A stretch of 64,000 nt of DNA, from assembly GCA_033763315.1 (NCBI GenBank), contig JANRKS010000020.1, positions 1 to 64,000 on the forward strand. Direction: 5' to 3'. Position numbers and translations under genes: made by a program. Shown piece by piece: positions 11,825 to 43,869 of the stretch. Source of the stretch: Deltaproteobacteria bacterium (GTDB lineage Bacteria; Myxococcota_A; Polyangia; Fen-1088). The notes under the pieces are model-generated. The model worked only from the letters and a program-made list of their open reading frames with translations. It made no database searches and was not told the origin of the DNA. How positions within the stretch are numbered: the first letter of the stretch is position 1; every line of letters starts with the position of its first letter.

Positions 11825-12312
11825 GCGGCTTGTCTCCCCGAACGAATGGTTTTCATGGTGGTGGCCAAGGCCGTAGGCACGTCGATCAGCAAGGCGGGAC
11901 CATCGGCGTCAACAATTGTGGCCGATACGAACGACGTGTGGCTTGTGTGTGGTCGTAGAAAATCAGCCGGCACCGTCACCACGCGTGCCACGCGCTCCAC
12001 AGCCAGCCCGCTGCGCACGAACGTGCCGTCGGCGAGCTGTGCTTCAACGATCAGTACGTAATCTTGCGCTGAACGCGAAAACGCATCGAATGACACGCCT
12101 GCAGAATCCAGACTGCCGGGCATCAGCTCCACGCCCAAATCCAAAACCGCCAGGGGCAGGCCATGAAATGAGATCGCGCCACGGATCAGCGGCGGAACCA
12201 GGGGTACCGGCGTGATCGCGGGCGCGGCCAACACTTCTCGCACCGATGCAACGTCGATGGCGCACCGTCGACCGCGAATCAGGAAGAACAACAGGTCATA
12301 CGTCTCGTTCAT
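11821..12312 (-). CDS. cheW: CheW coupling protein
   Basis: [35 protein letters not shown]; likely start ATG 12312 in ATGA overlap. Confidence 0.88.
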
Positions 12313-13499: not shown

Positions 13500-13613
13500 G
13501 AGGTAACCGCCAATGTCGCTTAGATGCCGCGCGAAAGGTCGCGATGCTAACACGTTGGCCGCCACTGCCCAAAGTTCCTTGACGCCCAGTCGCTCGACAG
13601 CAATGCGGATCCA

Positions 13614-13640
13614 TTGAGTTTTTGTGCGGCCCGCCGATAC
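13614..13640 (+). promoter_or_regulatory. Candidate sigma28 (FliA) promoter of the GAF-PilB gene
   Basis: TTGAGTTT-N11-GCCGATAC versus the E. coli consensus TAAAGTTT-N11-GCCGATAA; GAGG RBS then ATG 13662. Confidence 0.55.
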
Positions 13641-13661
13641 CCCTCCTGAGGTTTTTGCACG

Positions 13662-15953
13662 ATGGATGCCGCAGCGTGGCTTCGTACAGTTGAGGACTCA
13701 GCAGCCCAGGCGCAAAAGCGCCTTGAAGAATTGGGCTCGGCCGTTAACGAGTTTCGCAGCCGCGAACAATTGATAAGAGACGCCGACGAACGCCTTTCGC
13801 CAATCTTCGATTCGCAGCGCACGTATCTTTATGCCTTCGATGCCGCGTCCGCCCAACTGATCACCTTCGCGATGGTGGGCAAGGACCTAAAAGAGATCCG
13901 CGTTCCCGCGGGCCCCGGAAGCTTTGCTGGTTTCGTGGCGTTAGCGAAGGTGGCCGTGAATGTGCGCAACGCCTATGACCCCGCGGAACTGGCCCGCATC
14001 CATCCGAAGCTCAAGTTCAATGATCACCTCGATCAGCTGACGCAATTTACAACCAAGTCGATTCTCACGTTGCCCCTCATGGTCGACGGCGTTGTTGTTG
14101 GCGTCGTGCAGGCGATCAATAAGAAGAAGGGGCTGTCGTTTATGCCCCGGGATGTGACGGCGGCTGAAGAGGTGGGCAAGATCCTGGCGCCGCCGCTCAA
14201 ACGCCTCAACGACCGCGTGCGCACCGGCGAGCGCCGCGCCGGCAAGTGGGATTACCTGCTTGACCGTGGGGCGCTCACCAAGGATGCGTTGGATCTGGCC
14301 GTCAAGGAAGCCACCGCAGCGCGCGTTGATCCGGCACGCTACCTCATAGAGAAACTGGGCGTGAGCCGCAGCGACGTGGAACGATCGCTGGTCGAATTCT
14401 TCGGCGTCGAGTTTTATCGCTTCAACGGCACCGAATCGGTGCCAGCCGAACTGAAATCGCGCCTTCGCGTAGATTTCCTTAAGAACGTTTGTGCGGTGCC
14501 CGTGGAAATCCAGGGCTCGCGGATCACCATCGTTATCGATGACCCTTCGGACATCATGCGCACGGACGCTTTGCGTTCGATGGACGCCGATCGCGAGATC
14601 GTGATCCGGCTCGGCTTCCGCGACGAAATCATGGGTTGCATTGACCACTCGTTCGGCGCCAAGGCCGGCGACGTGGGCCTGATCCTTAAAGAGCTTTCCG
14701 CCGACGAGTCAACGGGTGCGGTCGAAGACGCGGGCGATGATGAGGTTCGTGGCGAATCAGACAGCGCGGTGATCAAGCTTGCAAACCAAGTGATCATTGA
14801 TGCCTATAGAAAGGGCGCCTCAGACATTCACATCGAGCCTAATGGGCGCGAACGCAACACAACCATCCGCTTTCGCGTTGATGGCGAATGCGTGAACTAC
14901 CAAGAGATTCCGTCGGCCATCCGGCTGCCGTTGGTGGCGCGCCTCAAAATCATGGCCAAGCTGGACATTTCTGAGCGGCGCAAGCCGCAAGACGGGAAGA
15001 TCCGCTTTCAGATGCAGGATCGCAAGATCGAGCTGCGCGTGGCTACCATTCCAACCGTCAACGGCAACGAAGACGTCGTGATGCGTATCTTGGCGGCGTC
15101 AAAGCCGATCCCCATCGAGAAAATGGGCATGAGCGACCGGAATCTGGCGGAGCTCAAAAAGATTGTATCGAAGCCGTATGGCCTTGTGCTGGTCGTGGGA
15201 CCCACCGGATCCGGTAAAACCACAACGCTGCACTCAGCGCTGGGTTACATCAATACGCCCGACACCAAGATCTGGACCGCGGAAGATCCGGTTGAAATCA
15301 CGCAGCCCGGGTTGCGCCAGGTGCAGGTGCAACCAAAGATCGGCTTCGATTTCGCCACCGCCATGCGCGCGTTTCTGCGCGCCGATCCGGACGTCATTAT
15401 GGTGGGCGAAATGCGTGACAAGGAAACCGCCAGCACCGGCGTTGAAGCCTCGCTGACCGGTCACTTGGTGTTGTCCACCCTGCACACAAACAGCGCGCCC
15501 GAAACAGTGACGCGCTTGATGGACATGGGCCTCGATCCCTTCTCGTTCGCCGACGCGCTGTTGGGCGTCTTGGCGCAACGTTTGACGCGCGCGTTGTGCC
15601 CTAAATGCAAAGCACCGCATTCGCCCACGGATGAAGAATGGGCCACCATTGTGGACTCGTTCGGCGAAGAGGGCGTGGCGAAACGCGGGTACCGTCGCGA
15701 AGGCATGACGCTGTACCACGGCGTGGGATGCGAATCTTGCGGCAAGAGCGGCTACAAAGGCCGCGTGGCGATCCATGAACTGCTCGTGAACAACGACAGC
15801 CTCAAGCTAGTGATTATGCGTAAGGCTCCCGTCGAAGAAATTCGCCACGGCGCCATCGAAGGTGGAATGACGACATTGCTTCAAGACGGCATCGACAAAG
15901 CCATCTTAGGAAAGACGGACATCAAGCAGATCTTGGCGGTTTGCAGCCGTTAA
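13662..15953 (+). CDS. pilB: GAF domain + PilB/GspE-family secretion/pilus extension ATPase
   Basis: N-terminal GAF (FTTKSILTLPL, GVVQAINKK), ASDIHIEP, Walker A GPTGSGKTTT, RADPDVIMVGEMRD, TGHLVLSTLHTN, Zn motifs CPKC and CESC. Confidence 0.88.
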   Translation: MDAAAWLRTVEDSAAQAQKRLEELGSAVNEFRSREQLIRDADERLSPIFDSQRTYLYAFDAASAQLITFAMVGKDLKEIRVPAGPGSFAGFVALAKVAVNVRNAYDPAELARIHPKLKFNDHLDQLTQFTTKSILTLPLMVDGVVVGVVQAINKKKGLSFMPRDVTAAEEVGKILAPPLKRLNDRVRTGERRAGKWDYLLDRGALTKDALDLAVKEATAARVDPARYLIEKLGVSRSDVERSLVEFFGVEFYRFNGTESVPAELKSRLRVDFLKNVCAVPVEIQGSRITIVIDDPSDIMRTDALRSMDADREIVIRLGFRDEIMGCIDHSFGAKAGDVGLILKELSADESTGAVEDAGDDEVRGESDSAVIKLANQVIIDAYRKGASDIHIEPNGRERNTTIRFRVDGECVNYQEIPSAIRLPLVARLKIMAKLDISERRKPQDGKIRFQMQDRKIELRVATIPTVNGNEDVVMRILAASKPIPIEKMGMSDRNLAELKKIVSKPYGLVLVVGPTGSGKTTTLHSALGYINTPDTKIWTAEDPVEITQPGLRQVQVQPKIGFDFATAMRAFLRADPDVIMVGEMRDKETASTGVEASLTGHLVLSTLHTNSAPETVTRLMDMGLDPFSFADALLGVLAQRLTRALCPKCKAPHSPTDEEWATIVDSFGEEGVAKRGYRREGMTLYHGVGCESCGKSGYKGRVAIHELLVNNDSLKLVIMRKAPVEEIRHGAIEGGMTTLLQDGIDKAILGKTDIKQILAVCSR

Positions 15954-16054
15954 TGACCATTTTCAAACAACGACAACAGAGCTCAAGGTGTGCTGATGTC
16001 GCTGGTGTGAGTGCGCAAATGCAAAAAATTGTATGTGCTGACGAACACAAACTG

Positions 16055-16082
16055 AGAAGTATCTGGCCGAACCTGCCGATAA
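16055..16082 (+). promoter_or_regulatory. Candidate sigma28 promoter of the kinase pair
   Basis: AGAAG-N15-GCCGATAA (perfect -10 at 16075-16082), 22 nt before ATG 16105. Confidence 0.55.
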
Positions 16083-16104
16083 CCAGGGTGGCTCGCAATT
16101 AAAC

Positions 16105-19050
<2,946 letters not shown>

Positions 19051-19122
19051 CCGCTTCGGAAAACTTCGCGCCGTGCAACGGGCCGGTGTAAGGTAACCGC
19101 TTCGGCGACAGCCACAACCCAC

Positions 19123-21843
19123 ATGTCGGGCCGGTACCCCAGGCGCTTCGGAAAGTATGTGCTGCTCAAGCCGCTGGCGAAGGGCGGTATGGGGGAGATC
19201 TATGTTGCGGCCGGGGGCGACATCGGCGGCTTCGAAAAGCTTTGCGTGATCAAAAAGGTGATCACGGAGAAGTCGGATCGCTCGAAGGCGATTCGCTTCT
19301 TGGACGAAGCGAAGGTGGTGTTACGGCTTTCGCATTCGTGTTTGGTCACGACCTTCGACGCGGGCGAAGTGGACAATGAGTTCTACATCGCGATGGAGTT
19401 GGTGGAGGGCAAGGATCTGCGCGACGTGTGGAACCGTTGCGTGCGCACCCGCCAACGCATCCCGCTTGATGTGGCGCTGCACGTGGTGCGCGAAGTGGCG
19501 CGCGCGTTGTCGTATGTGCACGCCTACGGGAACTTGAAGCTGGTCCACCGCGATGTGGCCCCTCCGAACATTTTGTTGTCATACGCCGGTGACGTGAAGC
19601 TCACGGACTTCGGCCTGGCGCGCAGCGTGTTGAAGCAAGAGCAAACCGCGCCGGGCGTGGTTTACGGCCGTGCCGCCTATTTGGCGCCCGAGCAGGCGCG
19701 GGGCGAGGTGGCCGACGCGCGCACGGATGTTTATACGTTGGGCATCGTCTTGTGGGAGTTGCTCACCGGGCAACAGTTCTTGCAGATTTCAGGCTTGGAT
19801 CCCGCCACAGCGTTGGCCATCGTTCGACACCCACGCCTCATCAAACCTTCAGCGCGCGCCACGTGGATCACGGCTGAACTTGATGACGTGGTGATGAAGG
19901 CGTTGGCACCCGATCGGGAGCAGCGTTTTCAATCCGCCGACGAAATGCGCCGGGCGCTCAATGAAGTGATCGCCACGATCGCGCCGCGCTCAGGTGCCGA
20001 TCGCATCGCCGAATTCATCGAAGGCATCTACGCCGATACGATCGCCGAAGAGCGCGAAGAGCGCGATGGCTTTCTGCGCGACGTGATCCCTGGCTTTCGC
20101 GCACGCCCTGAAACGATGTCGATACCGCCGGCACCGCCACCGGTGGTGGAAAAGCGAGACGATTCCTCCACGCAGCCCCGCGTGCGGGTGCGCAAGAAAG
20201 ACACCAGCGAGCCATTGTCGCGTCGCCGCCCCAGTGGCACGCGCCCCGCCGTTCCTTCCACACGCAAGGGCCCTGCAGGCGTGCCACTGCCCGGCTTGCC
20301 GCCGTCGCCCAAGCCGTTCGGCAGCGACAGCACCGGCTCGCTTGAAGTGCGCGATGGCGCGCGTCGCACCGATCCATCATCGGTGGATGGCGCCGCGGCT
20401 GCGGCACACAGCGATGATTACAACGATCCCGCGCGCGTGTTTGCGCGGGGCTTCTTGGGCCGCATGTTGGGCGGTCGATATCGTGTGATCGAACCCATCG
20501 GCGAAGGCGGCATGGGGCAAGTGTTCGCGGCCGAACACATTGAGATCGGCAAACGTGTGGCGGTCAAGGTGCTGCAGCCATCTTGTTCAGGCCGTCCTGA
20601 CCTTGTTGAACGATTCCGTCTCGAGGCGCGAGCCGCTTCAAAAATCGGCCACCCGAACATCGTTGACGTGACGGATCTCGGCACCACGGAAGAGGGGCTC
20701 GTTTACTACGTCATGGAGCAACTCCAGGGCGTGGACTTGGCCGAAGTGTTGGCGCAAGAGCGCACAGTGGAGCCAGCGCGGGCCATTCAGATCACAATTC
20801 AAATGTGCCAAGCGTTGGCGGCCGCACATCAAGCCGACATCATCCATCGCGATCTGAAACCAGAGAATATTTTCTTGCAGCCGCGCGGGCCGCAAGGCGA
20901 TCGCGTGAAGATCATCGACTTCGGTTTGGCACGCAGCCTCGAAGCGTCAATGAAGGTGAACAACGGGCGCCCGCTCACGAACCCGGGCACACCTATTGGC
21001 ACTCCTGAATATATGGCGCCTGAGCAAGCCGATGGCCATCCCGCCGACGCGCGCTCCGATATTTACGCTGTGGGCGCCATCTTGTACGAAATGATCACGG
21101 GCTTTCCGGCGTTTTCGGGCCGCGGTTACGCCGATGTGCTGGTGAAGAAGACGCGCGAACGACCGCGGCCGCCGCGTGATCTGCGGCCTGGCATCTCCAA
21201 GGAGCTGGAGGACGTGGTCATGTGGGCGCTCGAACGTGATCCCACACGCCGGCCTCAGACGATGTCACAGCTCGAGTACGCGCTGACCAAGATCGCCCGT
21301 GGTCGTGGCCAAGCCGTGGCGGCGCTGCTGGGCATTGAGGCCAACTCAGACACCACGCCGGCGCCGTCGCCCGCGTCGCCGCAACCACCGGGGGTGATGA
21401 CGTCGGCTTCGCTGCGCCCTGCGAAGAAGGAAGTGGCGTTGCGGGCGCTCGCTGAACTTGAGCAAGCGGGTGGGGCGTTGATGGAGGCGAACGATCTCAC
21501 CGTTCCGGCCGCCACCGTGTTTCCCGACTTTGACGCCGATGCGCCTGGCCGCACGGTTGAGGACATGGCCGTCTTGCAGGCAGATAGCCCTGCGCAACGT
21601 CCGGTGCCATCCGCAAGTGCCAAGGCCGCTGCTGCCTCCTCCGCGCACACGCGCGCCGTGTCTCCCGCCGCGCCACCGCCCAAATCAATGGTGCCAGCGC
21701 CAAGCGTGGGGCAGGCGTTCTTGGCTCGTCATGGGGTGGGGCCCGATGGCGCCCAACCGTCCACGCCGATCTGGAAGCGCGTGTCGATCGGGGTTGGCGC
21801 GGCGGTGGCCGCGGGCGTGATTCTCAAGCTGTTGCTAGGTTAG
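19123..21843 (+). CDS. Ser/Thr protein kinase with two kinase domains and a C-terminal membrane anchor (paralog of the upstream gene)
   Basis: HRDVAPPN and HRDLKPEN, two DFG and two APE motifs; terminal hydrophobic [20 protein letters not shown]. Confidence 0.93.
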
Positions 21844-33459: not shown

Positions 33460-33523
33460 ACGGCGGATTTTGACTCCACTCAAATTTTGCCACGGCAGAT
33501 TTTGACCTTGGTCAAATTTTGCC
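33460..33523. repeat. Two tandem 32-bp imperfect palindromes (putative operator)
   Basis: ACGGCGGATTTTGACTCCACTCAAATTTTGCC (33460-33491) and ACGGCAGATTTTGACCTTGGTCAAATTTTGCC (33492-33523). Confidence 0.85.
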
Positions 33524-33530
33524 GTACCTT
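33502..33530 (+). promoter_or_regulatory. Sigma70-type promoter overlapping the second palindrome; predicted TSS at the GTG start codon
   Basis: TTGACC-N17-TACCTT; in-frame GTG at 33537, 7 nt after the -10 element. Confidence 0.6.
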
Positions 33531-33536
33531 CATCGG

Positions 33537-34661
33537 GTGACGAAGACCACGACGAGGCGATATCTTCGGGAGCAGGTCACGAACGACCTGGCTCGCAAGA
33601 TGGTCTTTGTCGGTGGGCCCCGACAAGTTGGGAAAACGACGCTTTCACAGTCCCTGCCGGGTGGCAGGGCAGGGTACATGAATTGGGACGCGGCCGACCA
33701 TCGTGAAGCCATCCTGTCGAGGCGTTGGCCAACGTCGAAACTGTGGGTTTTCGACGAGATTCACAAGTATCGAAGTTGGCGTGGCTTGCTCAAGGGGCTT
33801 TATGACACGCGAACACCCAAGCAACAGATATTGGTGACCGGCAGTGCGAGGCTGGACCTGTACCGATACGGGGGAGATTCGCTTCAAGGCAGATACCACT
33901 TCTTGCGATTGCACCCGTTTTCGGTGGCGGAATTGGGCTTGAAGACCGAGTCTGACTTTGCCGATCTTCTGATGCTTGGCGGTTTTCCTGAACCGTTTTT
34001 GTCGGGCTCGGCCGTGCAGGCAAAGCGGTGGTCTCGCGAATATCGAACACGGCTCATCCGCGAAGACGTGGCCGACTTAGAACGCATCTCCGACCTCGGA
34101 AACCTCGAGCTGTTGATGCTTCGGCTGCCCGAGCTTGTCGGCTCGCCGCTGTCGGTAAACTCTCTCAGGGAAGACCTGCAAGTGGCCTTCAAGACAGCTG
34201 AGTCTTGGATCTCGGTGCTAGAGCGCATGTACGCCGTGTTCCGCTTGCCACCTTTCGGCGCGCCCAAACTGCGCGCCGTTCGAAAGGAACAGAAGCTTTA
34301 TCATTTCGACTGGAGCCTCATTCCCTCGCCAGGACCACGCCTCGAGAATCTGGTCGCGTGTCACCTACTGAAGTGGGTTCACCATCAACAGGACACACAA
34401 GGGCGGGAGCTGGAGCTTCGTTATTTCCGCGATCGCGATGGGCGCGAGGTGGATTTTGTGGTCACGGAAGCTCGCAAACCCATTCTGTTCGTTGAGGCGA
34501 AAGTGTCCTCCGGTGCGCTTGACCGCAACCTCGCCTATTTGGCGGGCAAATTTCCGGGAGTACGGGCGTTTCAGGTAAGTGGCACAGGAACGGCCGACCA
34601 CCTAACGGATCACGGCATTCGCGTTTGCCCGGCCCGAACGTTTCTATCGACCTTGGTGTGA
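33537..34661 (+). CDS. AAA+ ATPase (AAA_14) with DUF4143 / PD-(D/E)xK-like C-terminus
   Basis: GPRQVGKTT, VFDEIH, VTGSA, SLQGRY, GGFPE, KLYHFD, REVDFVV...VEAK. Confidence 0.92.
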   Translation: MTKTTTRRYLREQVTNDLARKMVFVGGPRQVGKTTLSQSLPGGRAGYMNWDAADHREAILSRRWPTSKLWVFDEIHKYRSWRGLLKGLYDTRTPKQQILVTGSARLDLYRYGGDSLQGRYHFLRLHPFSVAELGLKTESDFADLLMLGGFPEPFLSGSAVQAKRWSREYRTRLIREDVADLERISDLGNLELLMLRLPELVGSPLSVNSLREDLQVAFKTAESWISVLERMYAVFRLPPFGAPKLRAVRKEQKLYHFDWSLIPSPGPRLENLVACHLLKWVHHQQDTQGRELELRYFRDRDGREVDFVVTEARKPILFVEAKVSSGALDRNLAYLAGKFPGVRAFQVSGTGTADHLTDHGIRVCPARTFLSTLV

Positions 34662-35629: not shown

Positions 35630-36910
35630 GTGCAGGGGCCTTACCCTTTGACCAAAAGCCGCGAAATGAATTACGCTCGGATCTTCGTGAGGCATACACT
35701 GTGGCCGGGCGCACCGGAAGAAAGTGGAGAGGGCGCGGTTCCCCAAGCGGTTCGTTTGGAGGAGCCCTCGGTTCCCAACCCTCCCACTCCACCCGGGCCG
35801 ATCCTCACAGTTTCGTCGGAAGAGATCAGCCGCTTTTTTGTGCGCGCCCGGCGCGATCAGGATTGGGAGCGATGGGACATTCGATTGGACGCGGCTCTGC
35901 GTGAAATTCTCGAGCGCGCCAACGACTTTGTACCTTCTGAATCCGGAGGGATCCTCCTTGACGATCCACGGGCAAAGCTGGCCGGTGTTCAAACGCCGCG
36001 TCTGACGTTCATCGCGGTGTACGGGCCTGCGTCGTCTGAGCGTCTGGGCCGGCGCATTCCCTCTGATCGCGGTTTCGTTGGTGAGGTTTACCGCACCGGT
36101 GCGCCTCGCAGTGGCGTGCGTTTGGGCTTTGAAGATCCCATCACGATCTTGTGCCCCCCAAGAGGCACAAGCAAGCCCGCCGTGGATTCGATCATTGGCG
36201 TGCCCGTCATTGTTGGCGAATCAATTTGCGGTGTGCTCACGCTTGTGAACCGCCGATCGGGTGGGCCCTACACCGCGCGCGATGGCGAGCTGTTGCGCAT
36301 CTTTGCGGCGTATATGTCGTCGTCGATTCAAAACGCTTTGGACGCGATCCGCGCGCGCGCCTTGTCGCGGCTTGATCACTTAACGGGCCTGTTCAACAGC
36401 CGCTATTTTCACGTGCGTTTGCAAGATGAGATCGTGCGCTGCGACCGCGATGGCTCGAACTTGTGTGTGTTGTTCATCGACCTCGACAACTTTAAGGTGA
36501 TCAACGATCGTTACGGCCACTTGGCTGGCAGTTGGTCGCTGCGTGAAGTGGCCCGCGTGCTGTCTGAGAAGGTGCCTGCCGCTTCCATTTTGGCTCGCTA
36601 TGGCGGTGATGAATTCGCCGTGTTGTTGCCGGGCAGCGATTTGCCGCATGCATGCCGCGCGGCCGAAGAGCTGCGGCAGGGGATTTGCGATTTGGCTTTG
36701 TTCGACACCGAAACGGACGCGCACGGGCCGGGCATGCGGTTGCCGTCCGTTCAATGCTCGATCGGCGTGGCTTCATATCGCGATCATTTGGGGCCCGGCG
36801 GCACCAAACGCCGACGTGAAAACGTGCTGTTGAGGCTGGCAGACGCGGCCATGTACAAGGCGAAAGCTTCGGGGCGCAACCGCGTGGAAGTGGCCGACGG
36901 CGAAGACTGA
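35630..36910 (+). CDS. GAF-GGDEF diguanylate cyclase (true start may be somewhat downstream)
   Basis: GAF domain, DHLTGLFN, DLDNFKVINDRYGHLAG, RYGGDEF, ADAAMYKAKASGRN. Confidence 0.93.
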   Translation: MQGPYPLTKSREMNYARIFVRHTLWPGAPEESGEGAVPQAVRLEEPSVPNPPTPPGPILTVSSEEISRFFVRARRDQDWERWDIRLDAALREILERANDFVPSESGGILLDDPRAKLAGVQTPRLTFIAVYGPASSERLGRRIPSDRGFVGEVYRTGAPRSGVRLGFEDPITILCPPRGTSKPAVDSIIGVPVIVGESICGVLTLVNRRSGGPYTARDGELLRIFAAYMSSSIQNALDAIRARALSRLDHLTGLFNSRYFHVRLQDEIVRCDRDGSNLCVLFIDLDNFKVINDRYGHLAGSWSLREVARVLSEKVPAASILARYGGDEFAVLLPGSDLPHACRAAEELRQGICDLALFDTETDAHGPGMRLPSVQCSIGVASYRDHLGPGGTKRRRENVLLRLADAAMYKAKASGRNRVEVADGED

Positions 36911-36925
36911 CGCTAAACACCGGAT

Positions 36926-37552
36926 GTGAAACGCGCATCCGTTCGTTGGGCCGTGGTCTCGTTGGTGTTTGCTTTGGCGGCCTGCCGCTCGAAGCCGCGG
37001 CTTTTGCCGGCCGACAAAATTTTGGCTGAATTGCGCGGCGGCGACGGGCATCTGCTGTTGCAGGTGGGGCCGAGCGGCGACAACTTCGGCGACGAACGCT
37101 TGGGTTGGTATGGAGGGCCTGAGCAAGGTGGAACCTTGCAGCGGTTGCCGGGGCAAGCCGGTTCCGTCTCCGTCGACAACACGCACCTCACTTTGCGGCG
37201 CGCTGACAATGGCGATCTCGCCATGACCTCCAACGCGCAGTTGCGGCTCACCGTCGATCGCCGCGGTGATACCTTGCGGGTTGGCAACGGCGAGGGCTTT
37301 CCTTTGGCACGCATCCGCCTCGAAGGCGACGTGGCGCGCATGCATGGCCCCGGGGGCGAGTTGCAGGCCAGCGCAAAGCAAGAAGGCGGTCGCATCGTTG
37401 TGATGGACCGCGAAAACAAACCTTTGGGATATCTGACGGGATCGTTGGGCCCCGAGCAAGCGCTGCTTGCGTTTTTGCCCAACCTTGCTCCCGTTGAACA
37501 AGCGCTGCTGTTGGTCACCCCGGTGCCCGCGGTTAAAGCCGTGAAGCCTTAA
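36926..37552 (+). CDS. Hypothetical beta-rich lipoprotein
   Basis: Lipobox LAAC; 15 nt downstream of the cyclase on the same strand. Confidence 0.65.
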   Translation: MKRASVRWAVVSLVFALAACRSKPRLLPADKILAELRGGDGHLLLQVGPSGDNFGDERLGWYGGPEQGGTLQRLPGQAGSVSVDNTHLTLRRADNGDLAMTSNAQLRLTVDRRGDTLRVGNGEGFPLARIRLEGDVARMHGPGGELQASAKQEGGRIVVMDRENKPLGYLTGSLGPEQALLAFLPNLAPVEQALLLVTPVPAVKAVKP

Positions 37553-37580
37553 CCGCAGGCAGGGGTGTATGTGCCGTCGC

Positions 37581-37793
37581 CTAGCTTTCGCCAGGTCGAC
37601 GGGCTAAGGCTTGCCGGAGGATGCGCTCGGCCAGTTGTTCGGGTTGCACCCGATACCGACCAGCGACCACCAGCCGCCGTAGGTCTTCGACTCGTGACGC
37701 CCGCGCGATGTCTTCGCCAGACTGCGCCGAGAGGAAAGACTGTTTGTTGCCCGCCGCCGCCCGCCGTGATGTGAGCCTACCTGTGCCCTTCAT
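37581..37793 (-). CDS. flgM: Anti-sigma28 factor FlgM (short)
   Basis: C-terminal FlgM signature RASRVEDLRRLVVAGRYRVQPEQLAERIL; directly downstream of fliA; start probably ATG 37793 because ATG 37805 lies inside the promoter. Confidence 0.8.
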   Translation of the reverse strand: MKGTGRLTSRRAAAGNKQSFLSAQSGEDIARASRVEDLRRLVVAGRYRVQPEQLAERILRQALARRPGES

Positions 37794-37801
37794 GTACATG
37801 G

Positions 37802-37829
37802 ACATCGGTGCACGCCCTGCGGGTCTTAA
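37802..37829 (-). promoter_or_regulatory. Candidate sigma28 promoter of flgM
   Basis: TTAAG-N15-ACCGATGT on the minus strand; flgM is a classical sigma28 target. Confidence 0.7.
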
Positions 37830-37950
37830 GGAAAAAAAGCAACTTTTTGAAAACGGAAAAGAAACCGCGGAGTTACAACTCCCGGTTGGCCCCTTTCCCG
37901 AGCCTTCGCCGCCGTGCCTGCGGGCACCGACTGCGCGATTTGGGGGCGCC

Positions 37951-38976
37951 TTAGGCGGCGGCCTCTTCCAAATCCGTCAACGTCTCACGCAGGCGGCGCG
38001 TGGCCTCACCGTGGATCTGGCACACGCGGCTTTCCGTCACGCCAAGCACAGTGCCAATCTCTTTCAAATTCAAATTCTCAATGTAGTAGAGCGAGAGCAC
38101 CTGTTGCATCTTGTCGGGCAAGCGGCCAATGCCCTGCACAAGGCGGCCCAGCGTTTCCCGGTGTGAGGTGAGCTCAAAGGGATCTGGTGAAGTCTCGTCA
38201 CACGTGCGCTCAAGGAAGTCGGGGCCCGCATCGTCGATGCCCACAACCGAAGAGCCTGAAAGCTTCTGTTGGCGCGCGTAAAGCTCTTCAACGTCAACGC
38301 CTAATGTGTTGGCCAATTCTTGTTGATCGGGCGTGCGACCCAGCTGCGATTCAAGCTTGCGGGTGGCTTCGCGCAGCTCGTTTGAGAGGCGGCGCATGTC
38401 ACGCGAGAGCGTGTCGCGCGAGCGCAGATCGTCAAGCATGGCGCCGCGGATGCGGAACTCGGCGAAGGCTTCAAAACGGTCAACGCGGTTTGGATCGAAA
38501 CGTTCCGCAGCCTCCATCAAACCAATCACGCCCGAGGAAACAAGATCGTCAATCTCCACGTGGGCCGGCAAGCGGCGCGCCAAACGACGTGCAACTTTCT
38601 CGATGTAAGGGAAGAATTGAGCGGCGTATTGACGGCGTTTTTCAGCCAAGGCTTCAGCCGCGGTTTGTACGGGAGCGGCAGCCGCGCGCTTGGGCTTCTT
38701 GCGCTCACCGGCCTGCAGTTCGGTTTGCTTGACCGTCACATCAACGGCGGCGGCTTTGCTGCTGGTGGCTTTGGCAGGCGTCTTGGTCTTTTCGGCAACC
38801 GTCTTGACGGCTTTGGCAGGCGACTTCTCCGCGGGCTTGGTGGCCACAGCCTTTGTGGCAGGTTTAGCGACAGTGGCCTTCACACTTGTTTTGGTGGCGG
38901 CGGGCGCTTTGGTGTTGGCAACTTTGACGGTGGTGGCTTTGCTGACGGGAGGCTTGCGGGTTTGCACGGTGGCCAT
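37951..38976 (-). CDS. fliA: FliA/WhiG-family sigma28 factor with Lys/Ala/Thr-rich N-terminal extension
   Basis: RLPAHVEIDDLVSSGVIGLMEAAERFDP, FRIRGAMLDDLR, LYYIENLNLKEIGTVLGVTESRVCQIH. Confidence 0.93.
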   Translation of the reverse strand: MATVQTRKPPVSKATTVKVANTKAPAATKTSVKATVAKPATKAVATKPAEKSPAKAVKTVAEKTKTPAKATSSKAAAVDVTVKQTELQAGERKKPKRAAAAPVQTAAEALAEKRRQYAAQFFPYIEKVARRLARRLPAHVEIDDLVSSGVIGLMEAAERFDPNRVDRFEAFAEFRIRGAMLDDLRSRDTLSRDMRRLSNELREATRKLESQLGRTPDQQELANTLGVDVEELYARQQKLSGSSVVGIDDAGPDFLERTCDETSPDPFELTSHRETLGRLVQGIGRLPDKMQQVLSLYYIENLNLKEIGTVLGVTESRVCQIHGEATRRLRETLTDLEEAAA

Positions 38977-38988
38977 GCGGGGAATAAG

Positions 38989-39004
38989 TGCACGGCACGT
39001 GCCA
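38989..39004 (-). promoter_or_regulatory. Sigma54 (-24/-12) promoter of fliA
   Basis: TGGCACG-TGCC-GTGCA with exact GG-N10-GC spacing, 12 nt before the ATG. Confidence 0.78.
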
Positions 39005-39065
39005 GATTTGCGGCGACGGAAAATCGAGGACTTGCTGAACTGTCGCTACGAAAACCGTCGTAAAC

Positions 39066-39118
39066 CGTCAGTGGGATGACGATCTCTGTCAGCTGACGCC
39101 GCCAACCGGTTGACGGCG
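39066..39118. promoter_or_regulatory. Candidate upstream activator sites for the FleQ-like activator
   Basis: CGTCA-GTGGGA-TGACG (39066-39081) and CGCCGCCAACCGGTTGACGGCG (39097-39118); both fit the GTCA-N6-TGAC FleQ-box geometry, about 90-140 bp upstream of the sigma54 promoter TSS. Confidence 0.55.
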
Positions 39119-39184
39119 TTGCGTTCGCTGACACGTTTCCCATGAGCCGCCGACATGGCTCCAAAAGTAGGAGATTTGCACGAC

Positions 39185-40531
39185 TTAAGCGACGTTACGT
39201 CGGCGCAGTTTTTCGACCAATGTGGTGCGGTTCAATCCCAAAAGTTCTGCCGCACGGTTCTTGTTGCCGCCCGTTCGCTTGAGCGCTTGGCCAATCAAAC
39301 GATCTTCAAGTTGCGAAAGCAGCAAGCGCAGGTCCACGCCTGTGGCGGGCAAATCAAGCGGCGTGTTGGCGAGATCCAAAACGCTCATCCGCAGGTTGGG
39401 CGGCAGATCTTCAAGCGTGATGAACGGGTGGGAGGCCACGATCACCAGACGCTCAACCACATTGGCCAGCTGGCGCACGTTGCCCGGCCACTCATAGCCG
39501 CGCAGACGATCCATGACCTCGCCATCAAAGCCCGAGACGTTGCGGCTGTGGCGGGCGTTCATCTCCATCCGGAAGTGATCCGCCAAACGCGGGATGTCCT
39601 CGGGCCGCTCGCGCAGGGGCGGCATCTCGATCGGAATCACATCCAGTCTGTAAAACAGGTCTTCGCGGAAATCGCCGTCGCGCACCATCTGCTCAAGGTT
39701 GCGATGGGTGGCGGCAATGATGCGCACATTGACGGAGGTGTGATCGTTTCCGCCCAACGGCTGCACCACGCGATCTTGCAGCACGCGCAACACCTTGGCC
39801 TGCAGCGCCTTCGACATGTCGCCGATCTCGTCGAGAAACAGCGTGCCGCCGTCAGCGCTCGCGATCTTGCCTTCGCGGCTGCGGTCAGCGCCCGTGAACG
39901 CTCCACGCACGTGACCGAGCAGCTCTGACTCCGCCAACGCTTCGGGGATGGCGGCCATGTTGACGGCCACGAACGGCCCGGCCCGGCGTTGGCTGGCGGC
40001 GTGGATCAAGCGGGCCACAACTTCCTTGCCCGTGCCTGTCTCGCCGCGAATCAGTACGCTGGCATCGGTGTTCGCCACTTGTTCGATGCGTTCAAGCACC
40101 AGGCGTATGGCGGGGTGCTCGCCAACCAACGCCGCACCCTGCGTGGGACGCCAACCATTGACGGGCAACGTGGCGTCCAGGAACCTCACCACGGCCGCTT
40201 CAACCGCCTTGGGAGAAAACGGCTTGGCCACGAAGTCTAGGGCGCCTGCACGCAGCGCTGCCACGGCCTGGCGAATCGTTCCCGGACCGGAACTCACAAT
40301 CACCGGCACAATGGGTTGGCACCGCAGAGCCGCTTGCAGGATTGCGAAGCTGTCGATGGCCTCGGTCCCTAAGCTGGGAATGCAAAGGTCTGGTGGCGCG
40401 TCTTGCAGGGCCATCAAAGCGGTCTCGCCATCGCTGGCGTGCGACACAATGTAGCCGCGTTCAGCCAGGATCTGGCCCAGCTGTTCACGCGCGTTCTGGT
40501 CGTCATCGACGACAAGGATCGTTTTGCCCAT
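39185..40531 (-). CDS. Sigma54-dependent enhancer-binding protein of the FleQ/FlrA/FgrM type with atypical receiver
   Basis: GETGTGKE, GAFTGA, LFLDEIGD, FREDLFYRL, WPGNVRQL, HTH LGLNRTTLVEKLRR (TTLVEK is typical of FleQ/FlrA); start ATG 40531. Confidence 0.88.
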   Translation of the reverse strand: MGKTILVVDDDQNAREQLGQILAERGYIVSHASDGETALMALQDAPPDLCIPSLGTEAIDSFAILQAALRCQPIVPVIVSSGPGTIRQAVAALRAGALDFVAKPFSPKAVEAAVVRFLDATLPVNGWRPTQGAALVGEHPAIRLVLERIEQVANTDASVLIRGETGTGKEVVARLIHAASQRRAGPFVAVNMAAIPEALAESELLGHVRGAFTGADRSREGKIASADGGTLFLDEIGDMSKALQAKVLRVLQDRVVQPLGGNDHTSVNVRIIAATHRNLEQMVRDGDFREDLFYRLDVIPIEMPPLRERPEDIPRLADHFRMEMNARHSRNVSGFDGEVMDRLRGYEWPGNVRQLANVVERLVIVASHPFITLEDLPPNLRMSVLDLANTPLDLPATGVDLRLLLSQLEDRLIGQALKRTGGNKNRAAELLGLNRTTLVEKLRRRNVA

Positions 40532-40543
40532 TGGCTTACGTTT

Positions 40544-40571
40544 CAATCGGCGGGATGAAGGTGTGGCTGAA
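40544..40571 (-). promoter_or_regulatory. Candidate sigma28 promoter of the fleQ-like gene
   Basis: TTCAG-N15-GCCGATTG, same spacing as the flgM promoter, 12 nt before ATG 40531. Confidence 0.55.
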
Positions 40572-40630
40572 GCGATGCTGATCGCGTTTTGTGGGGGCTG
40601 GGGCTAACGCAACGGCGCAACATGGCGGGC

Positions 40631-42250
40631 CTAATCGTCGGTCTTACCAGCACTCCAAGGGCCCGCAAAGCCGGCCCGCGACAAGATCGGACCAAATTCT
40701 TTTTTGTTGGGAGCTTTCGCATACGCCTCCGACGCCTCCACGACGTTGTTTTTCACCAGATCAATCATTGCGTCGTTCAGGGTCTGCATGCCGATGCCTT
40801 TGCCGGTTTGCATGAGCGACGGGATTTGAAAGGTTTTGCCTTCGCGAATCAGGTTGGCCACGGCCGAAGTCACGACCAAGATCTCAAGGGCTGCCACACG
40901 GCCGCCGCCCTTCTTCTTCAGCAGCGTTTGCGCCACCACGCCTTTGAGCGATTCGGACAACATCAAACGGATCTGGCTTTGCCGATCGGTGGGGAATTGG
41001 TCAATCAAGCGATCAACGGTGGAAGGTGCCGTATTGGTATGCAGGGTTCCGAACACCAAGTGGCCCGTTTCCGCCGTTTCGATCGCGATCGCGACCGTCT
41101 CAAGATCGCGCATTTCGCCCACAAGCACGATGTCGGGATCTTCGCGCAAGGCCGCGCGCAAGGCGCTTTTGAAGCCCTTGGTGTGCACGCCAATTTCACG
41201 TTGGTTCACGAGGCACTTGATGTCCTTGTGCACGAACTCGACGGGGTCTTCGATGGTGATCAAGTGATCGTTGCGGTTCTTGTTAATCCAATCGACCATG
41301 GCCGCGAGCGTGGTTGACTTGCCGCTGCCGGTGGGGCCCGTTACCACGACCAAGCCTTTGGTGTGTTGGCACATGTCGATCACGGCCTTGGGCACACCCA
41401 GCTGTTCCACGGTTAAGATCTTGGAGGGGATCTGCCGAAACACGGCGCCGGCGCCCGCCAAGTCACGAAACACGTTGCAACGCATACGCGCGCGTCCCTT
41501 GAGCTCGTACGCAAAGTCGCTGTCGTTCGTCTCGGCGTATTCTTTCTTGTTGCGCTCGGGAGTGATGGGATCAACCAGCCGCGAGATCTGCTCGCTTGTG
41601 AGCGGCTGCCGGTTCGGCATGGCCAAGATGCCGCCATCGACGCGCACCATGGGCACGAGGTTGGATTTGAGGTGCATATCAGAGGCCCGCATATCGAGCA
41701 TCTGGTGGAAAAGTTCATCAATGCTGTCGGGTGTGGTGGCGGCAACCATCACGTTGCTGGCCGCCATTGCCATGTCGGCGCTGTCGGCCGCCGAAATCGA
41801 AATGGGTTCGGGCGCTGGCCGGGGTGCGGGGGCAGGCATCGACACCGGGGCAGGCGCTGGCCGCGCAGGGGCTGGTGCGGGCGCCGCAGCAAATACCGGG
41901 GGTGAGGCAAACGCCATCGCTTGTGGGGGCTGTGGGGCGGGTGCGGTGGCTTGGCCGCGGCCGGGCTCGATCGTCACCACGATGCCGGCGTTGCCCTCCT
42001 CGACCGTGATGGTGACCAGGCCGCTGGGCGAGGGATAGGGAAACGAACGCGTGCCCGAAAGGCCTGGCGTGTAAGACGGTCCTAACACTTCGGCCAAAAG
42101 CGCCACGATTTGATCTTCAGTGGCGGGTTTGGAGGAAACGGGCTTGGATGCGCCCGCGATCACCATGGCCACGGGCGCATCAGCTTTGAACACCAAGGCA
42201 TTCGCCCGGTGCTTCACCATCGCGTCTAGATATCGATCCAGTGTTGCCAT
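40631..42250 (-). CDS. pilT: Type IV pilus retraction ATPase PilT paralog with an extra N-terminal domain and Pro/Ala linker
   Basis: ASDMHL, GPTGSGKSTT, TIEDPVEF, ALREDPDIVLVGEMRD, TGHLVFGTLHT, AVANLIRE, GMQT; start ATG 42250 with AAGGA RBS. Confidence 0.92.
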   Translation of the reverse strand: MATLDRYLDAMVKHRANALVFKADAPVAMVIAGASKPVSSKPATEDQIVALLAEVLGPSYTPGLSGTRSFPYPSPSGLVTITVEEGNAGIVVTIEPGRGQATAPAPQPPQAMAFASPPVFAAAPAPAPARPAPAPVSMPAPAPRPAPEPISISAADSADMAMAASNVMVAATTPDSIDELFHQMLDMRASDMHLKSNLVPMVRVDGGILAMPNRQPLTSEQISRLVDPITPERNKKEYAETNDSDFAYELKGRARMRCNVFRDLAGAGAVFRQIPSKILTVEQLGVPKAVIDMCQHTKGLVVVTGPTGSGKSTTLAAMVDWINKNRNDHLITIEDPVEFVHKDIKCLVNQREIGVHTKGFKSALRAALREDPDIVLVGEMRDLETVAIAIETAETGHLVFGTLHTNTAPSTVDRLIDQFPTDRQSQIRLMLSESLKGVVAQTLLKKKGGGRVAALEILVVTSAVANLIREGKTFQIPSLMQTGKGIGMQTLNDAMIDLVKNNVVEASEAYAKAPNKKEFGPILSRAGFAGPWSAGKTDD

Positions 42251-42288
42251 ACCCGTCCTTCGTCGCTGCCGTGCAGCTCCGCCTTGAA

Positions 42289-42316
42289 ACTTCGACGCGG
42301 TGGCACCAAAACTTGA
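42289..42316 (-). promoter_or_regulatory. Candidate sigma28 promoter of pilT
   Basis: TCAAG(TTT)-N15 spacing-GTCGAAGT in the 80-bp gap upstream of pilT. Confidence 0.5.
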
Positions 42317-42330
42317 ACGCGGTTGCTGGT

Positions 42331-43869
42331 TTAGCGGGCGGCGGTGGCAAGGCGCTGGGTCAAAAGCCGCACCAAAGCGTAGATGGTGAGCTGCGGGTTC
42401 ACGCCCAAAGAAGACGGGAAGAGCGAACCATCCATCACCCAAACGTTGTCATAGCCCGTGAGTTTGCCGTGTTCGTCGGTGGCGCTTGCTCCTGATCGAC
42501 CCATGCCACAGCCACCCATCTGATGGGCCGAGAACAACGTGTGAAGTTGCGTCCCAAAAGCTTGCTGTTGCAAGCGCCCAACATCGGCGACGCTTTTGAG
42601 GCGCAGCGGTTCACGGTGCAAAGTGACCACCTCTTTGGCACCGGCCGCAAACAGAATGCGTGTCATCGTGGCCAAGGCGTGTTTGCCGGCCTCTATCAAG
42701 TTGGGCGCGATGGGATACTTCAATTTGGATCGGCCGTGTGCCGAGACGGATACCGTGCCGCCATGGTCTTTGCCGTGACCATCGATCAGCAAGGCGATGG
42801 TGGCTTGCGCGAACGGCAGTTGCGCGGCCAAATCGCGGTGATCTTGCGCAAAGCCCGGAAACGCCACCGCCGACAGCATCGGGTGCACGGGCGCCGTTTC
42901 CAGAAAATAGCCGGTTTTTCCCGCGCCCCGCTCGGCGAAGTGGTGGCACGCGACGGATTGCGGAGGCCCGTAATAGCCCTCAATGGGATCATCGAACAAG
43001 CCCACGATAGGCACTGTGGGGTGCAAGAATGTGCGTGTGCCCAACCCCGGGGCCTTGAGTTGTGAACGCATCAATAGAGCGGGCGAATTGATGGCGCCGC
43101 CAGCGACGATCACCCCGCGCGTCGGCTTGACCACAAGGGTTGCACCGGTGGTGTTGTCATTGGGTGGCATGATGGCTTCGGCCATCACCTCATCCACGCG
43201 TTTGCCCGCTGACATCTGCAAACGCACCACGCGGCAATCCGAATATAGGGTGGCTCCCGAAGCCGATGCGTCCGCCAAAAACGTTGTGCGCGAGGATTGT
43301 TTGGCGTCGAGCGGGCAACCCATCCCACAATAGCCAAGGCGGGCGCAGCCTTTGACGCTGCGTCGGATGAGCTGCGGCTCGTATCCTAACGCTTTGGCGC
43401 CTTCGAACAGCTTGGCGTTGTTGCGGTTTACGTCATCCGTGCGGCCCTCGTGAACATTCAAGCGTTGTTCAACGTGCTCGTAGTGAGGGCGTAAGGTGGC
43501 GGCGTCGATCGGGAGGCGATGCTGGTCTTGCCAGAACTTCAACGTGCGCTCCGGGATGCGAAAGCTCGAACCCCAATTGACCGTGGTGCCCCCGCCTACG
43601 GATCGGCCTTGCAACAACAACACGCCCAGATCGGCGGTGGTGCGGTTGCCGTGATCTTGATAAAGCGCTGGATAAGCCCAGCCTTCTTGCATGTTAAAGT
43701 CGCGCCGCGTGTGGTGGTGGCCTTCTTCCAACACCACCACTTTGGCACCCGCCGCGGCCAGCACCGCCGCAGCCATGGCGCCGCCGGCGCCGGAGCCCAC
43801 CACGCAAAAGTCGCAGGTCAGTTCAATGCGACCGCTCAAAGATGTGGCCGAAAGGGCCTGCCCCGTCAT
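42331..43869 (-). CDS. GMC-family flavin oxidoreductase (LaoA-like long-chain alcohol dehydrogenase type)
   Basis: VGSGAGG, GRSVGGGTTVNW, CARLGYCGMGC, AGGAINSPALL, SAHQMGGC, DGSLFPSSLGVNPQLTI. Confidence 0.9.
   Translation of the reverse strand: MTGQALSATSLSGRIELTCDFCVVGSGAGGAMAAAVLAAAGAKVVVLEEGHHHTRRDFNMQEGWAYPALYQDHGNRTTADLGVLLLQGRSVGGGTTVNWGSSFRIPERTLKFWQDQHRLPIDAATLRPHYEHVEQRLNVHEGRTDDVNRNNAKLFEGAKALGYEPQLIRRSVKGCARLGYCGMGCPLDAKQSSRTTFLADASASGATLYSDCRVVRLQMSAGKRVDEVMAEAIMPPNDNTTGATLVVKPTRGVIVAGGAINSPALLMRSQLKAPGLGTRTFLHPTVPIVGLFDDPIEGYYGPPQSVACHHFAERGAGKTGYFLETAPVHPMLSAVAFPGFAQDHRDLAAQLPFAQATIALLIDGHGKDHGGTVSVSAHGRSKLKYPIAPNLIEAGKHALATMTRILFAAGAKEVVTLHREPLRLKSVADVGRLQQQAFGTQLHTLFSAHQMGGCGMGRSGASATDEHGKLTGYDNVWVMDGSLFPSSLGVNPQLTIYALVRLLTQRLATAAR

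Follow-up and report, generated by a model that had tools for sequence, protein, structure and literature searches.

Background

Control of fliA by sigma-54, sigma-28-dependent expression of flgM, the occurrence of FliA and FlgM in bacteria without flagella, and the division of sigma-28 factors into flagellar and non-flagellar forms are already known. Here, a cassette of three neighbouring genes combining such regulators was analysed. It is located on a 64,000-nt stretch of DNA, called the window throughout, from an uncultured member of the Polyangia (positions 1 to 64,000 of contig JANRKS010000020.1, assembly GCA_033763315.1). The three genes, all on the minus strand, specify a sigma-54 activator (EBP1), a FliA/WhiG-family sigma-28 factor (FliA1), and a candidate anti-sigma-28 factor (FlgM1). 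An earlier interpretation of the window without database searches, the sequence-only reading, had proposed a closed feedback circuit of these regulators, i.e. a flagellar cascade repurposed as a cell-state switch. From the analyses presented here, it appeared rather likely that the cassette serves an entire family of uncultured Polyangia as a regulatory module, which consists of regulators of the flagellar type but is not tied to the flagellum.

A split of sigma-28 factors in Actinomycetota into WhiG1 and WhiG2 has been described by Denis et al. (bioRxiv 2026, PMC12871210), and the -10 element is given there as GCCGAACT for the flagellar WhiG1 and as GCCGATAA for WhiG2. The situation in the Polyangia family is similar in several respects. 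Two sigma-28 clades are present, one co-distributed with the flagellar cluster and the other kept regardless, and the -10 elements come in parallel flavours, GCCGAA or GCCGTA for the flagellin type and GCCGAT for the FliA1 type. Enzymes of cyclic di-guanosine monophosphate (c-di-GMP) metabolism, chemotaxis genes, and regulators are among the predicted targets in both cases, and some WhiG homologues are predicted in the same preprint to target their own promoter, a likeness to the self-wiring proposed for the cassette. Unlike the WhiG systems, the cassette belongs to another phylum, its anti-sigma factor is a FlgM homologue and not RsiG with c-di-GMP, expression of fliA1 appears to depend on a sigma-54 activator of its own, the gene of which is preceded by a sigma-28-type promoter, and leaderless transcripts are predicted.

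The non-flagellate Legionella oakridgensis retains FliA and FlgM, with flgM expression depending on sigma-28 and degradation of FlgM being suggested, according to a review (PMC5655016). As in the cassette, a sigma-28/FlgM pair exists without a flagellar regulon, and FlgM has to be inactivated without a hook-basal body. In L. oakridgensis, however, a single ancestral pair has remained after gene loss, whereas the pair analysed here is a separate paralogous one, present beside FliA2 and FlgM2 in flagellate members, universal in the family, and equipped with its own sigma-54 activator and putative feedback wiring.

In the hierarchies headed by FleQ, FlrA, or FgrM in Pseudomonas, Vibrio, and Geobacter, fliA is part of an flhA-flhF-flhG-fliA operon, as is the gene for FliA2 in the genome analysed here. 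The cassette shares with these hierarchies a sigma-54 activator upstream of fliA, the GAFTGA motif in the AAA+ domain, and a Fis-type helix-turn-helix (HTH). Like FleQ, EBP1 of this genome has a receiver without acceptor aspartate, and the predicted binding sites fit the FleQ outline. Unlike FleQ, EBP1 lacks the N-terminal domain PF06490, and unlike in all three hierarchies the activator gene itself carries a sigma-28-type promoter. To our knowledge, FleQ, FlrA, and FgrM have not been described as sigma-28-dependent. In a literature search that did not cover supplements, no account of FliA from Myxococcales or myxobacteria was found, and neither a dedicated activator under a sigma-28-type promoter nor a sigma-54 promoter abutting a start codon was encountered.

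Results

Conservation of the cassette

To define the cassette in relatives, 35 good FliA1 relatives from species-representative genomes were used, all of them metagenome-assembled genomes (MAGs) of uncultured Myxococcales/Polyangia, the window included. By tblastn, EBP1 was detected upstream of FliA1 in 33 of the 35 loci and FlgM1 downstream in 27. When open reading frames (ORFs) were anchored to the promoter motif described below, a FlgM1 ORF of 62 to 73 aa starting 9 to 10 nt past GCCGAT was found in 32 loci, and two further loci were recognized by tblastn only, so that FlgM1 adjoins FliA1 in 34 of 35 cases. Neither approach detected FlgM1 in the remaining locus, L050. The neighbouring genes are less regular. 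A GAF-GGDEF gene with 57 to 81% identity was matched by tblastn in 20 loci, pilT upstream of EBP1 in nine, placing it outside the conserved core, and the 208-aa ORF also in nine.

FliA1 matched TIGR02479 with 227.4 bits (cut-off 189.6), Sigma70_r2, Sigma70_r3, and Sigma70_r4 were all recognized above cut-off, and the core residues are mostly invariant in 34 orthologues. Identity to FliA2 amounts to 36%. FliA1 also has an N-terminal extension of about 105 aa (window 38662-38976, minus strand), which is rich in Lys, Ala, Thr, and Pro and contains no Pfam domain. The open frames are of similar length in the two relatives of the same genus (347 and 383 aa) and comprise 255 to 310 aa in most other genera.

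With the ATG at 40531 as start codon, EBP1 comprises 448 aa; a TTG at 40546 opens the longest ORF. With Response_reg (64.7 bits), Sigma54_activat (235.3 bits), and HTH_8 (51.4 bits), a GAFTGA-containing AAA+ domain, and a Fis-type HTH, it fits the architecture of the NtrC family. The closest solved relatives are FleQ (8p53, E 8.7e-89) and ZraR (1ojl, E 1.7e-88), which are nearly equal. The receiver has Ser53 at the position of the acceptor aspartate. In a MAFFT alignment of 29 EBP1 orthologues, with the column identified by eye, this position is occupied by Asp in 15, by Ser in ten, and by Asn, Arg, or His in four. Phosphorylation can therefore not be the universal input, the acceptor being absent in 14 of 29 proteins.

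The contacts of FleQ to c-di-GMP comprise the Arg of an LFRS motif, an Arg-Asn pair following Walker A, and an ExxxR motif. In EBP1, only the generic Arg after Walker A is retained, the other positions being A, L, H, and E (phmmer alignment to 8p53 inspected by eye), and c-di-GMP sensing in the manner of FleQ was rejected on these grounds. No match to PF06490 was obtained in the whole genome. The sequence-only reading had called this gene fleQ-like. FleQ is indeed its top solved relative, but the N-terminal domain and the contact residues are not kept, and the label is best taken to denote resemblance only.

For FlgM1, PF04316 was matched with 29.3 bits (cut-off 25), the match being confined to the C-terminal sigma-binding part. 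A conserved C-terminal block, RVEELRxxVAxGxYxV-P--LA--IL-RAL, is present in this part of the protein. This block and the neighbourhood to FliA1 in 34 of 35 loci make FlgM1 a candidate partner of this sigma factor. From the motif-anchored ORFs, the third ATG of the ORF, at 37793, was deduced to be the true start. A 220-nt contig identical to 37564-37783 (flgM1) was detected in one freshwater metatranscriptome, which documents presence of the sequence but neither transcription starts nor levels. In the same run, 7% of the sampled words were found, and the other matches, 85 to 95% alike, were fragments from other organisms that represent the conserved core parts of AAA+ domains and sigma factors.

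Promoters and activator boxes

Searching the window with TGGCAYG-N4-BTGCW yielded a single match, 38989-39004 on the minus strand (shuffled sequences, 0.25). The ATG of fliA1 lies only 14 nt past the C of the -12 element. With a transcriptional start 12 nt after this C, the leader of fliA1 would be about 2 to 3 nt. A sigma-54 promoter abutting a start codon is an unusual arrangement. Among the 35 start regions of FliA1 genes, 30 matched the sigma-54 expression, and an in-frame ATG 14 to 16 nt after the -12 C was found in 29 of the 35 loci.

Upstream of this promoter, a perfect GTCA-N6-TGAC palindrome is located at 39067-39080, about 76 nt before the -24 element. The window contains one other match, at 32666 (shuffled sequences, 0.72). 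A second box, 34 bp further upstream, is degenerate in the window, yet a clean palindrome in most relatives. When relaxed half-sites were allowed, two boxes 34 bp apart were present in all 30 promoter-bearing loci, and in most of them the distance from box start to the sigma-54 motif is 76-77 nt for the one and 110-111 nt for the other. As predicted sites, the boxes agree in outline (GTCA-N6-TGAC) with the FleQ consensus. This consensus, quoted as GTCaNTAAAtTGAC and proposed for P. aeruginosa, has 536 matches in the genome of P. fluorescens F113 (PMC6120874).

A sigma-28-type motif, CTTMAG-N15-RCCGAT, occurs exactly twice in the window, before EBP1 and before flgM1 (shuffled sequences, 0.02). 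The ATG of EBP1 follows GCCGAT by 14 nt and that of flgM1 follows ACCGAT by 10 nt; flgM1 mRNA would consequently be leaderless. Sites of this type were found in 26 of 30 regions upstream of EBP1, the window included, and in 25 of 27 regions upstream of flgM1, although internal sites had been picked in error in two of these 25. The sequence conserved before both genes is T(A/C)AG-N15-GCCGAT, to be compared with the TAAA-N15-GCCGATAA type of promoter read by FliA/WhiG-family sigma factors. Since the remaining intergenic DNA is not conserved, these promoter elements are regarded as functional rather than fortuitous.

The motifs before EBP1 and flgM1 are also retained in genomes in which FliA1 is the only sigma factor of the FliA/WhiG family. 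In such genomes, nothing but FliA1 itself could close the loop, and their motifs provide the strongest case for recognition by FliA1 and for a closed circuit. The wiring suggested by the sequence-only reading, with a promoter-like element in front of each of the three genes, was thus borne out at the level of conservation: all elements are as described, on the minus strand, which had not been stated, and about 30 of 35 loci show the same fixed geometry. The relatives covered belong to one Polyangia family.

Distribution of FliA1 and flagellar genes

In contrast to what had been presumed from the window, in which no flg, fli, or flh structural gene is found, a search of the whole genome revealed flagellar clusters on three other contigs, C22, C27, and C23 (Table 1). 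The genome is flagellate, and a flagella-free background cannot be claimed for it. FliA2 and FlgM2 are located in canonical flagellar positions and constitute the flagellum's own pair.

To relate FliA1 to flagella, 81 genomes of the order were examined, representing one family and 19 genera, with a high-quality subset of 25. FliA1 was present in all 81 (25 of 25 in the subset), FliG in 39 (16 of 25). Two genera lack FliG throughout, g6 (0 of 23) and g7 (0 of 8), including assemblies of nine to ten contigs. Among the 35 cassette-bearing MAGs, 23 have strong FliG matches, three have matches of about 26 bits only, and nine have none. Of the 12 without strong FliG, flagellin was detected in one and absent in 11. 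Orthologues of FliA2 (at least 52% identity) were found in 21 genomes, all of them FliG-positive, and in none of the 12 FliG-negative MAGs, in ten of which FliA1 was the only match. FliA2 therefore tracks FliG, while FliA1, unlike classical FliA, does not track flagellar genes. Incompleteness of the FliG-negative genomes was considered and rejected as an explanation: the genes for FliG, flagellin, FliA2, and FliP1 are on different contigs in the genome analysed here and yet are missing together, and whole genera are affected. The independence from flagella implied by the sequence-only reading is supported for the family, but not for this genome.

All 12 MAGs without strong FliG contain FliP. 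In four genomes inspected, the five FliP loci were all of the non-flagellar FliP2 type, located between rpoA-rplQ and priA. The genome analysed here has a corresponding second, non-flagellar export gate, fliO2-fliP2-fliQ2-fliR2 with a gene for a 250-aa FlhB-like protein (C27:96889-99791), after rpoA-rplQ and before priA, and an orphan FlhA2 among housekeeping genes (C33:36618-38528). In PMC9380563, a type III system of Myxococcales lacking a secretin is mentioned, to which this set may correspond.

The flagellar cluster on C22 is headed by EBP-A (416 aa) and EBP-B (374 aa), both without receiver domain (C22:109532-113497). Between them, a protein of 477 aa is encoded that belongs to no Pfam family and adjoins FliG in 21 of 23 flagellate relatives. 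A third FliA-like sigma factor of 387 aa with an N-terminal extension (C34:98454-99617) reached 145.8 bits with TIGR02479, below cut-off; its gene adjoins those for a lipoprotein of the YscJ/FliF family, a PilZ protein, and an FHA-histidine kinase-receiver protein. Genomes of genera g7, g9, and g17 carry an additional FliA1-like paralogue, 53 to 65% identical to the FliA1 core, beside an orthologue with 81 to 85%.

Predicted targets of FliA1

A position weight matrix (PWM) was built from 51 cassette sites. In the window, the site before EBP1 scored 21.7 and that before flgM1 18.3 at a spacing of 16 and 14.6 at a spacing of 15. The neighbouring genes were tested as candidates and dismissed, with scores of 3.0 for pilT, -2.5 for the 208-aa ORF, and 3.5 for GAF-GGDEF. 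In the genome, 152 sites were found versus 31 in a reversed-genome control. A called gene was located downstream of 53 sites, resulting in 47 distinct genes outside the cassette, of which the 40 top-scoring ones were annotated and seven left out. The 40 include three of the 24 GGDEF genes of the genome, genes for a methyl-accepting chemotaxis protein, a CheA-like kinase, a PilZ protein, two HD-GYP-type proteins, and an HDOD kinase, and also several Ser/Thr kinases, an ECF-like (extracytoplasmic function) sigma factor, and two sigma-54 activators. No flagellin, hook-associated, or pilus structural gene is among these 40. The module probably controls signalling genes including c-di-GMP enzymes.

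Late flagellar genes are not preceded by a FliA1-type motif, the scores being -1.1 for fliC, 0.8 for flgM2, and 7.8 for fliD. Instead, flagellin genes of 23 flagellate relatives have an upstream motif CTTATC-N15-GCCGAA/GCCGTA (C23:96342-96470 in this genome), and 23 of 26 distinct regions match CTTA[TA]C-N13-16-G[CT]CG[AT]A. Judged by co-occurrence only, FliA2 would be the factor reading this promoter. The flagellin genes have a leader with a normal Shine-Dalgarno sequence, unlike the cassette genes with their predicted leaderless mRNAs.

The gene for EBP-A, one of the predicted targets, is a special case. Its promoter is strong in this genome (20.9) and in a close relative, G010 (20.4), weak in G002 (10.5), and at most 7.1 in the other 14 testable relatives; in three further stretches fetched from relatives, no EBP-A match was obtained. 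With a strong site missing in 15 of 17 testable relatives, a general link from FliA1 to EBP-A was discarded. The connection is lineage-specific.

Proposed wiring and alternative explanations

From the gene identities, the conserved motif geometry, and the phyletic pattern, we infer which protein binds where, the sign of each interaction, and the dynamics as follows. EBP1 would bind to the two palindromic boxes, which lie some 95 and 130 bp before the transcriptional start of fliA1, and activate sigma-54 RNA polymerase, of which the genome encodes a single RpoN, at the promoter abutting the fliA1 ATG, giving rise to a nearly leaderless mRNA. RNA polymerase containing FliA1 would read the CTTMAG-N15-GCCGAT promoter of EBP1, constituting a positive loop, and would also drive flgM1, whose product would sequester FliA1 in a negative loop. 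Both loops together might give rise to bistable or pulsed expression, as put forward by the sequence-only reading. In addition, FliA1 would transcribe a signalling regulon and, in this genome and one close relative, the gene for EBP-A of the flagellar cluster, while late flagellar genes would depend on the paralogous FliA2, paired with FlgM2, and on promoters of another flavour. Ignition may occur by read-through from pilT or by some input to the EBP1 receiver. The sequence-only reading had regarded transcription of EBP1 solely by such read-through or by sigma-70, together with a complete flagellar regulon elsewhere in the genome, as speaking against its circuit; the flagellar genes are there, and read-through may occur, no minus-strand terminator being visible between pilT and EBP1.

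Several observations weigh against this scheme. Five of the 35 loci fail the strict sigma-54 expression, three of them with ATGC at -12 and two with nothing recognizable. FlgM1 stays below the cut-off of the NCBIfam model TIGR03824 (24.7 versus 40.75 bits). Locus L052 keeps boxes and promoter without an adjoining EBP1 gene, indicating that adjacency is not obligatory and that another of the many activators of the genome could act there. About one fifth of the PWM targets may be due to chance, and leaderless geometry is enriched only about twofold (36 of 152 PWM hits versus 28 of 220 random CCGAT sites). The sole RNA datum, the contig identical to flgM1, proves no transcription start, and only this genome and G010 clearly show a connection to EBP-A of the flagellar cluster, with a weak site in G002.

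One alternative is that the loop is open. The motifs could be read by FliA2, by the third FliA-like factor on C34, or by an ECF sigma factor, or fliA1 could be activated by another activator, so that the genes would be co-located and not mutually wired. Many sigma-54 activators and sigma factors of the sigma-70 family are indeed encoded, with 14 places matching TIGR02479 at E<=0.001; besides L052, pilT read-through into EBP1 would be compatible with this explanation. Yet the motifs are retained even in genomes with no other FliA/WhiG-type match than FliA1, they fit the canonical sigma-28 architecture (T-A/C-A-G N15 GCCGAT), the boxes hold a fixed phase with the promoter, and EBP1 adjoins FliA1 in 33 of 35 loci, which makes co-location without wiring unlikely. 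We consider it slightly less probable still that the cassette merely heads the flagellar hierarchy as a set of master regulators, placed away from the structural genes and without further function. Such a role would agree with the full flagellar clusters in the genome, with the FliA1-type promoter before EBP-A here and in G010, and with the situation in Geobacter, Vibrio, and Campylobacter, in which fliA is normally controlled by sigma-54 (study of the Geobacter RpoN regulon, PMC2725144). It is hardly reconciled with the presence of FliA1 in every one of the 42 genomes of the family without a FliG match, whole genera included, with the missing EBP-A site in 15 of 17 relatives, with a second pair, FliA2/FlgM2, in canonical flagellar positions, and with the lack of FliA1-type motifs before late flagellar genes.

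The location next to pilT might also point to regulation of type IV pili or twitching motility. In addition to pilT directly upstream here and in nine of 35 loci, the window contains genes for a GAF-MshEN-T2SSE ATPase, a CheA-like kinase, and an REC-DUF4388 protein, and for WhiG-type sigma factors of some Actinomycetota, type IV pilus genes have been predicted as targets (PMC12871210). Since the adjacency is absent from 26 of 35 loci, since pilT itself has no FliA1-type promoter (best score 3.0), and since the 40 annotated targets include no structural gene of a pilus, this role appears highly improbable.

Returning to the module independent of the flagellum, release of the brake has to be considered. 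Flagellar export of FlgM1 is impossible in FliG-negative genomes. The export gate behind rpoA-rplQ is kept in every member checked, non-flagellate ones included. That FlgM1 leaves the cell through this secretin-less, non-flagellar FliOPQR-FlhB/FlhA gate, resulting in a self-sustaining sigma-28 switch, is a speculative and rather improbable extension. If true, the switch would report the state of this enigmatic Myxococcales type III machine to the c-di-GMP and chemosensory network, and the orphan gate as well as the orphan FlgM would gain a function.

Genomic context

The positions of all features are listed in Table 1. Both flanks named by the sequence-only reading, pilT and a diguanylate cyclase gene, were recovered by their TIGR01420 and GGDEF matches. 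When 43 ORFs of the window were scanned against Pfam, with admittedly crude gene calls, no flagellar structural gene was detected, in agreement with the same reading. A scan of 37300-40800 for sigma-70 promoters gave no site, terminator-like sites in the scanned region were at chance level (five found, 5.0 expected), and an Rfam scan of 36800-41000 produced only a sub-threshold match to BjrC68 (20 bits, cut-off 39).

Another part of the window, 8562-21843, is a signalling and motility neighbourhood. It contains genes for a CheA-like hybrid kinase with Hpt-HATPase-CheW-REC domains (8562-10802), the REC-DUF4388 protein (12309-13565), the GAF-MshEN-T2SSE ATPase (13662-15953), and two adjoining proteins with two kinase domains each (16105-19050 and 19123-21843). 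Genes for ATPases with AAA_14 and DUF4143 were found at three unrelated places, each adjoining a region analysed here, in the window at 33519-34661 and on contigs C33 (L019:4632-6008) and C23 (L021:6017-7234). The one at 33519-34661 had no tblastn match between the peptidase S58 and GGDEF genes of relatives and may be a mobile insertion.

Table 1. Features of the cassette region (positions in the window) and flagellar clusters on other contigs
Feature	Position	Strand	Remarks
pilT/pilU-family ATPase gene	40631-42442	-	TIGR01420, 463.7 bits; upstream flank; N-terminal extension of ~240 aa
Sigma-28-type promoter before EBP1	40546-40572	-	CTTCAG-N15-GCCGAT
EBP1, NtrC/FleQ-like sigma-54 activator	39185-40531 (longest ORF to 40546)	-	Response_reg + Sigma54_activat + HTH_8
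Distal activator box (predicted)	39101-39114		Degenerate, GCCA-N6-TGAC
Proximal activator box (predicted)	39067-39080		Perfect GTCA-N6-TGAC within CGTCA-N6-TGACG
Sigma-54 promoter before fliA1	38989-39004	-	TGGCACG-N4-GTGCA
fliA1, FliA/WhiG-family sigma-28, 341 aa	37951-38976	-	TIGR02479
Weak terminator-like hairpin, fliA1/flgM1 gap	37869-37882	-	T-rich tail; not above chance
Sigma-28-type promoter before flgM1	37804-37830	-	CTTAAG-N15-ACCGAT
flgM1, candidate anti-sigma-28, 70 aa	37581-37793 (ORF to 37805)	-	PF04316
208-aa ORF, convergent	36926-37552	+	No Pfam family
GAF-GGDEF diguanylate cyclase gene, convergent	35630-36910	+	GGDEF, 123.8 bits
Flagellar cluster	Contig C22		EBP-A, EBP-B, flgBC, fliEFGHI, flgDE, motAB
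Flagellar cluster	Contig C27		fliLMNOPQR, flhBA, 380-aa ORF, flhG, fliA2
Flagellar cluster	Contig C23		flgGHI, then flgM2-flgN-flgK-flgL-fliC-fliD-fliS

Conclusions

The coupling of a regulator to the assembly of a machine is exemplified in textbooks by sigma-28 and FlgM. In the cassette, a paralogous pair appears to have separated from this context and acquired a sigma-54 activator of its own, with a wiring that can be read directly from the conserved promoters. The small number of defined parts, three promoters, two boxes, and three proteins, would make the module suitable for rebuilding in a laboratory host, and the question is raised how FlgM is relieved without a flagellum. After WhiG of the Actinomycetota, the cassette would be a second, independent case of a flagellar sigma factor recruited for general signalling, in which a putative positive-plus-negative feedback wiring is kept by every sampled member of the family, flagellate or not.

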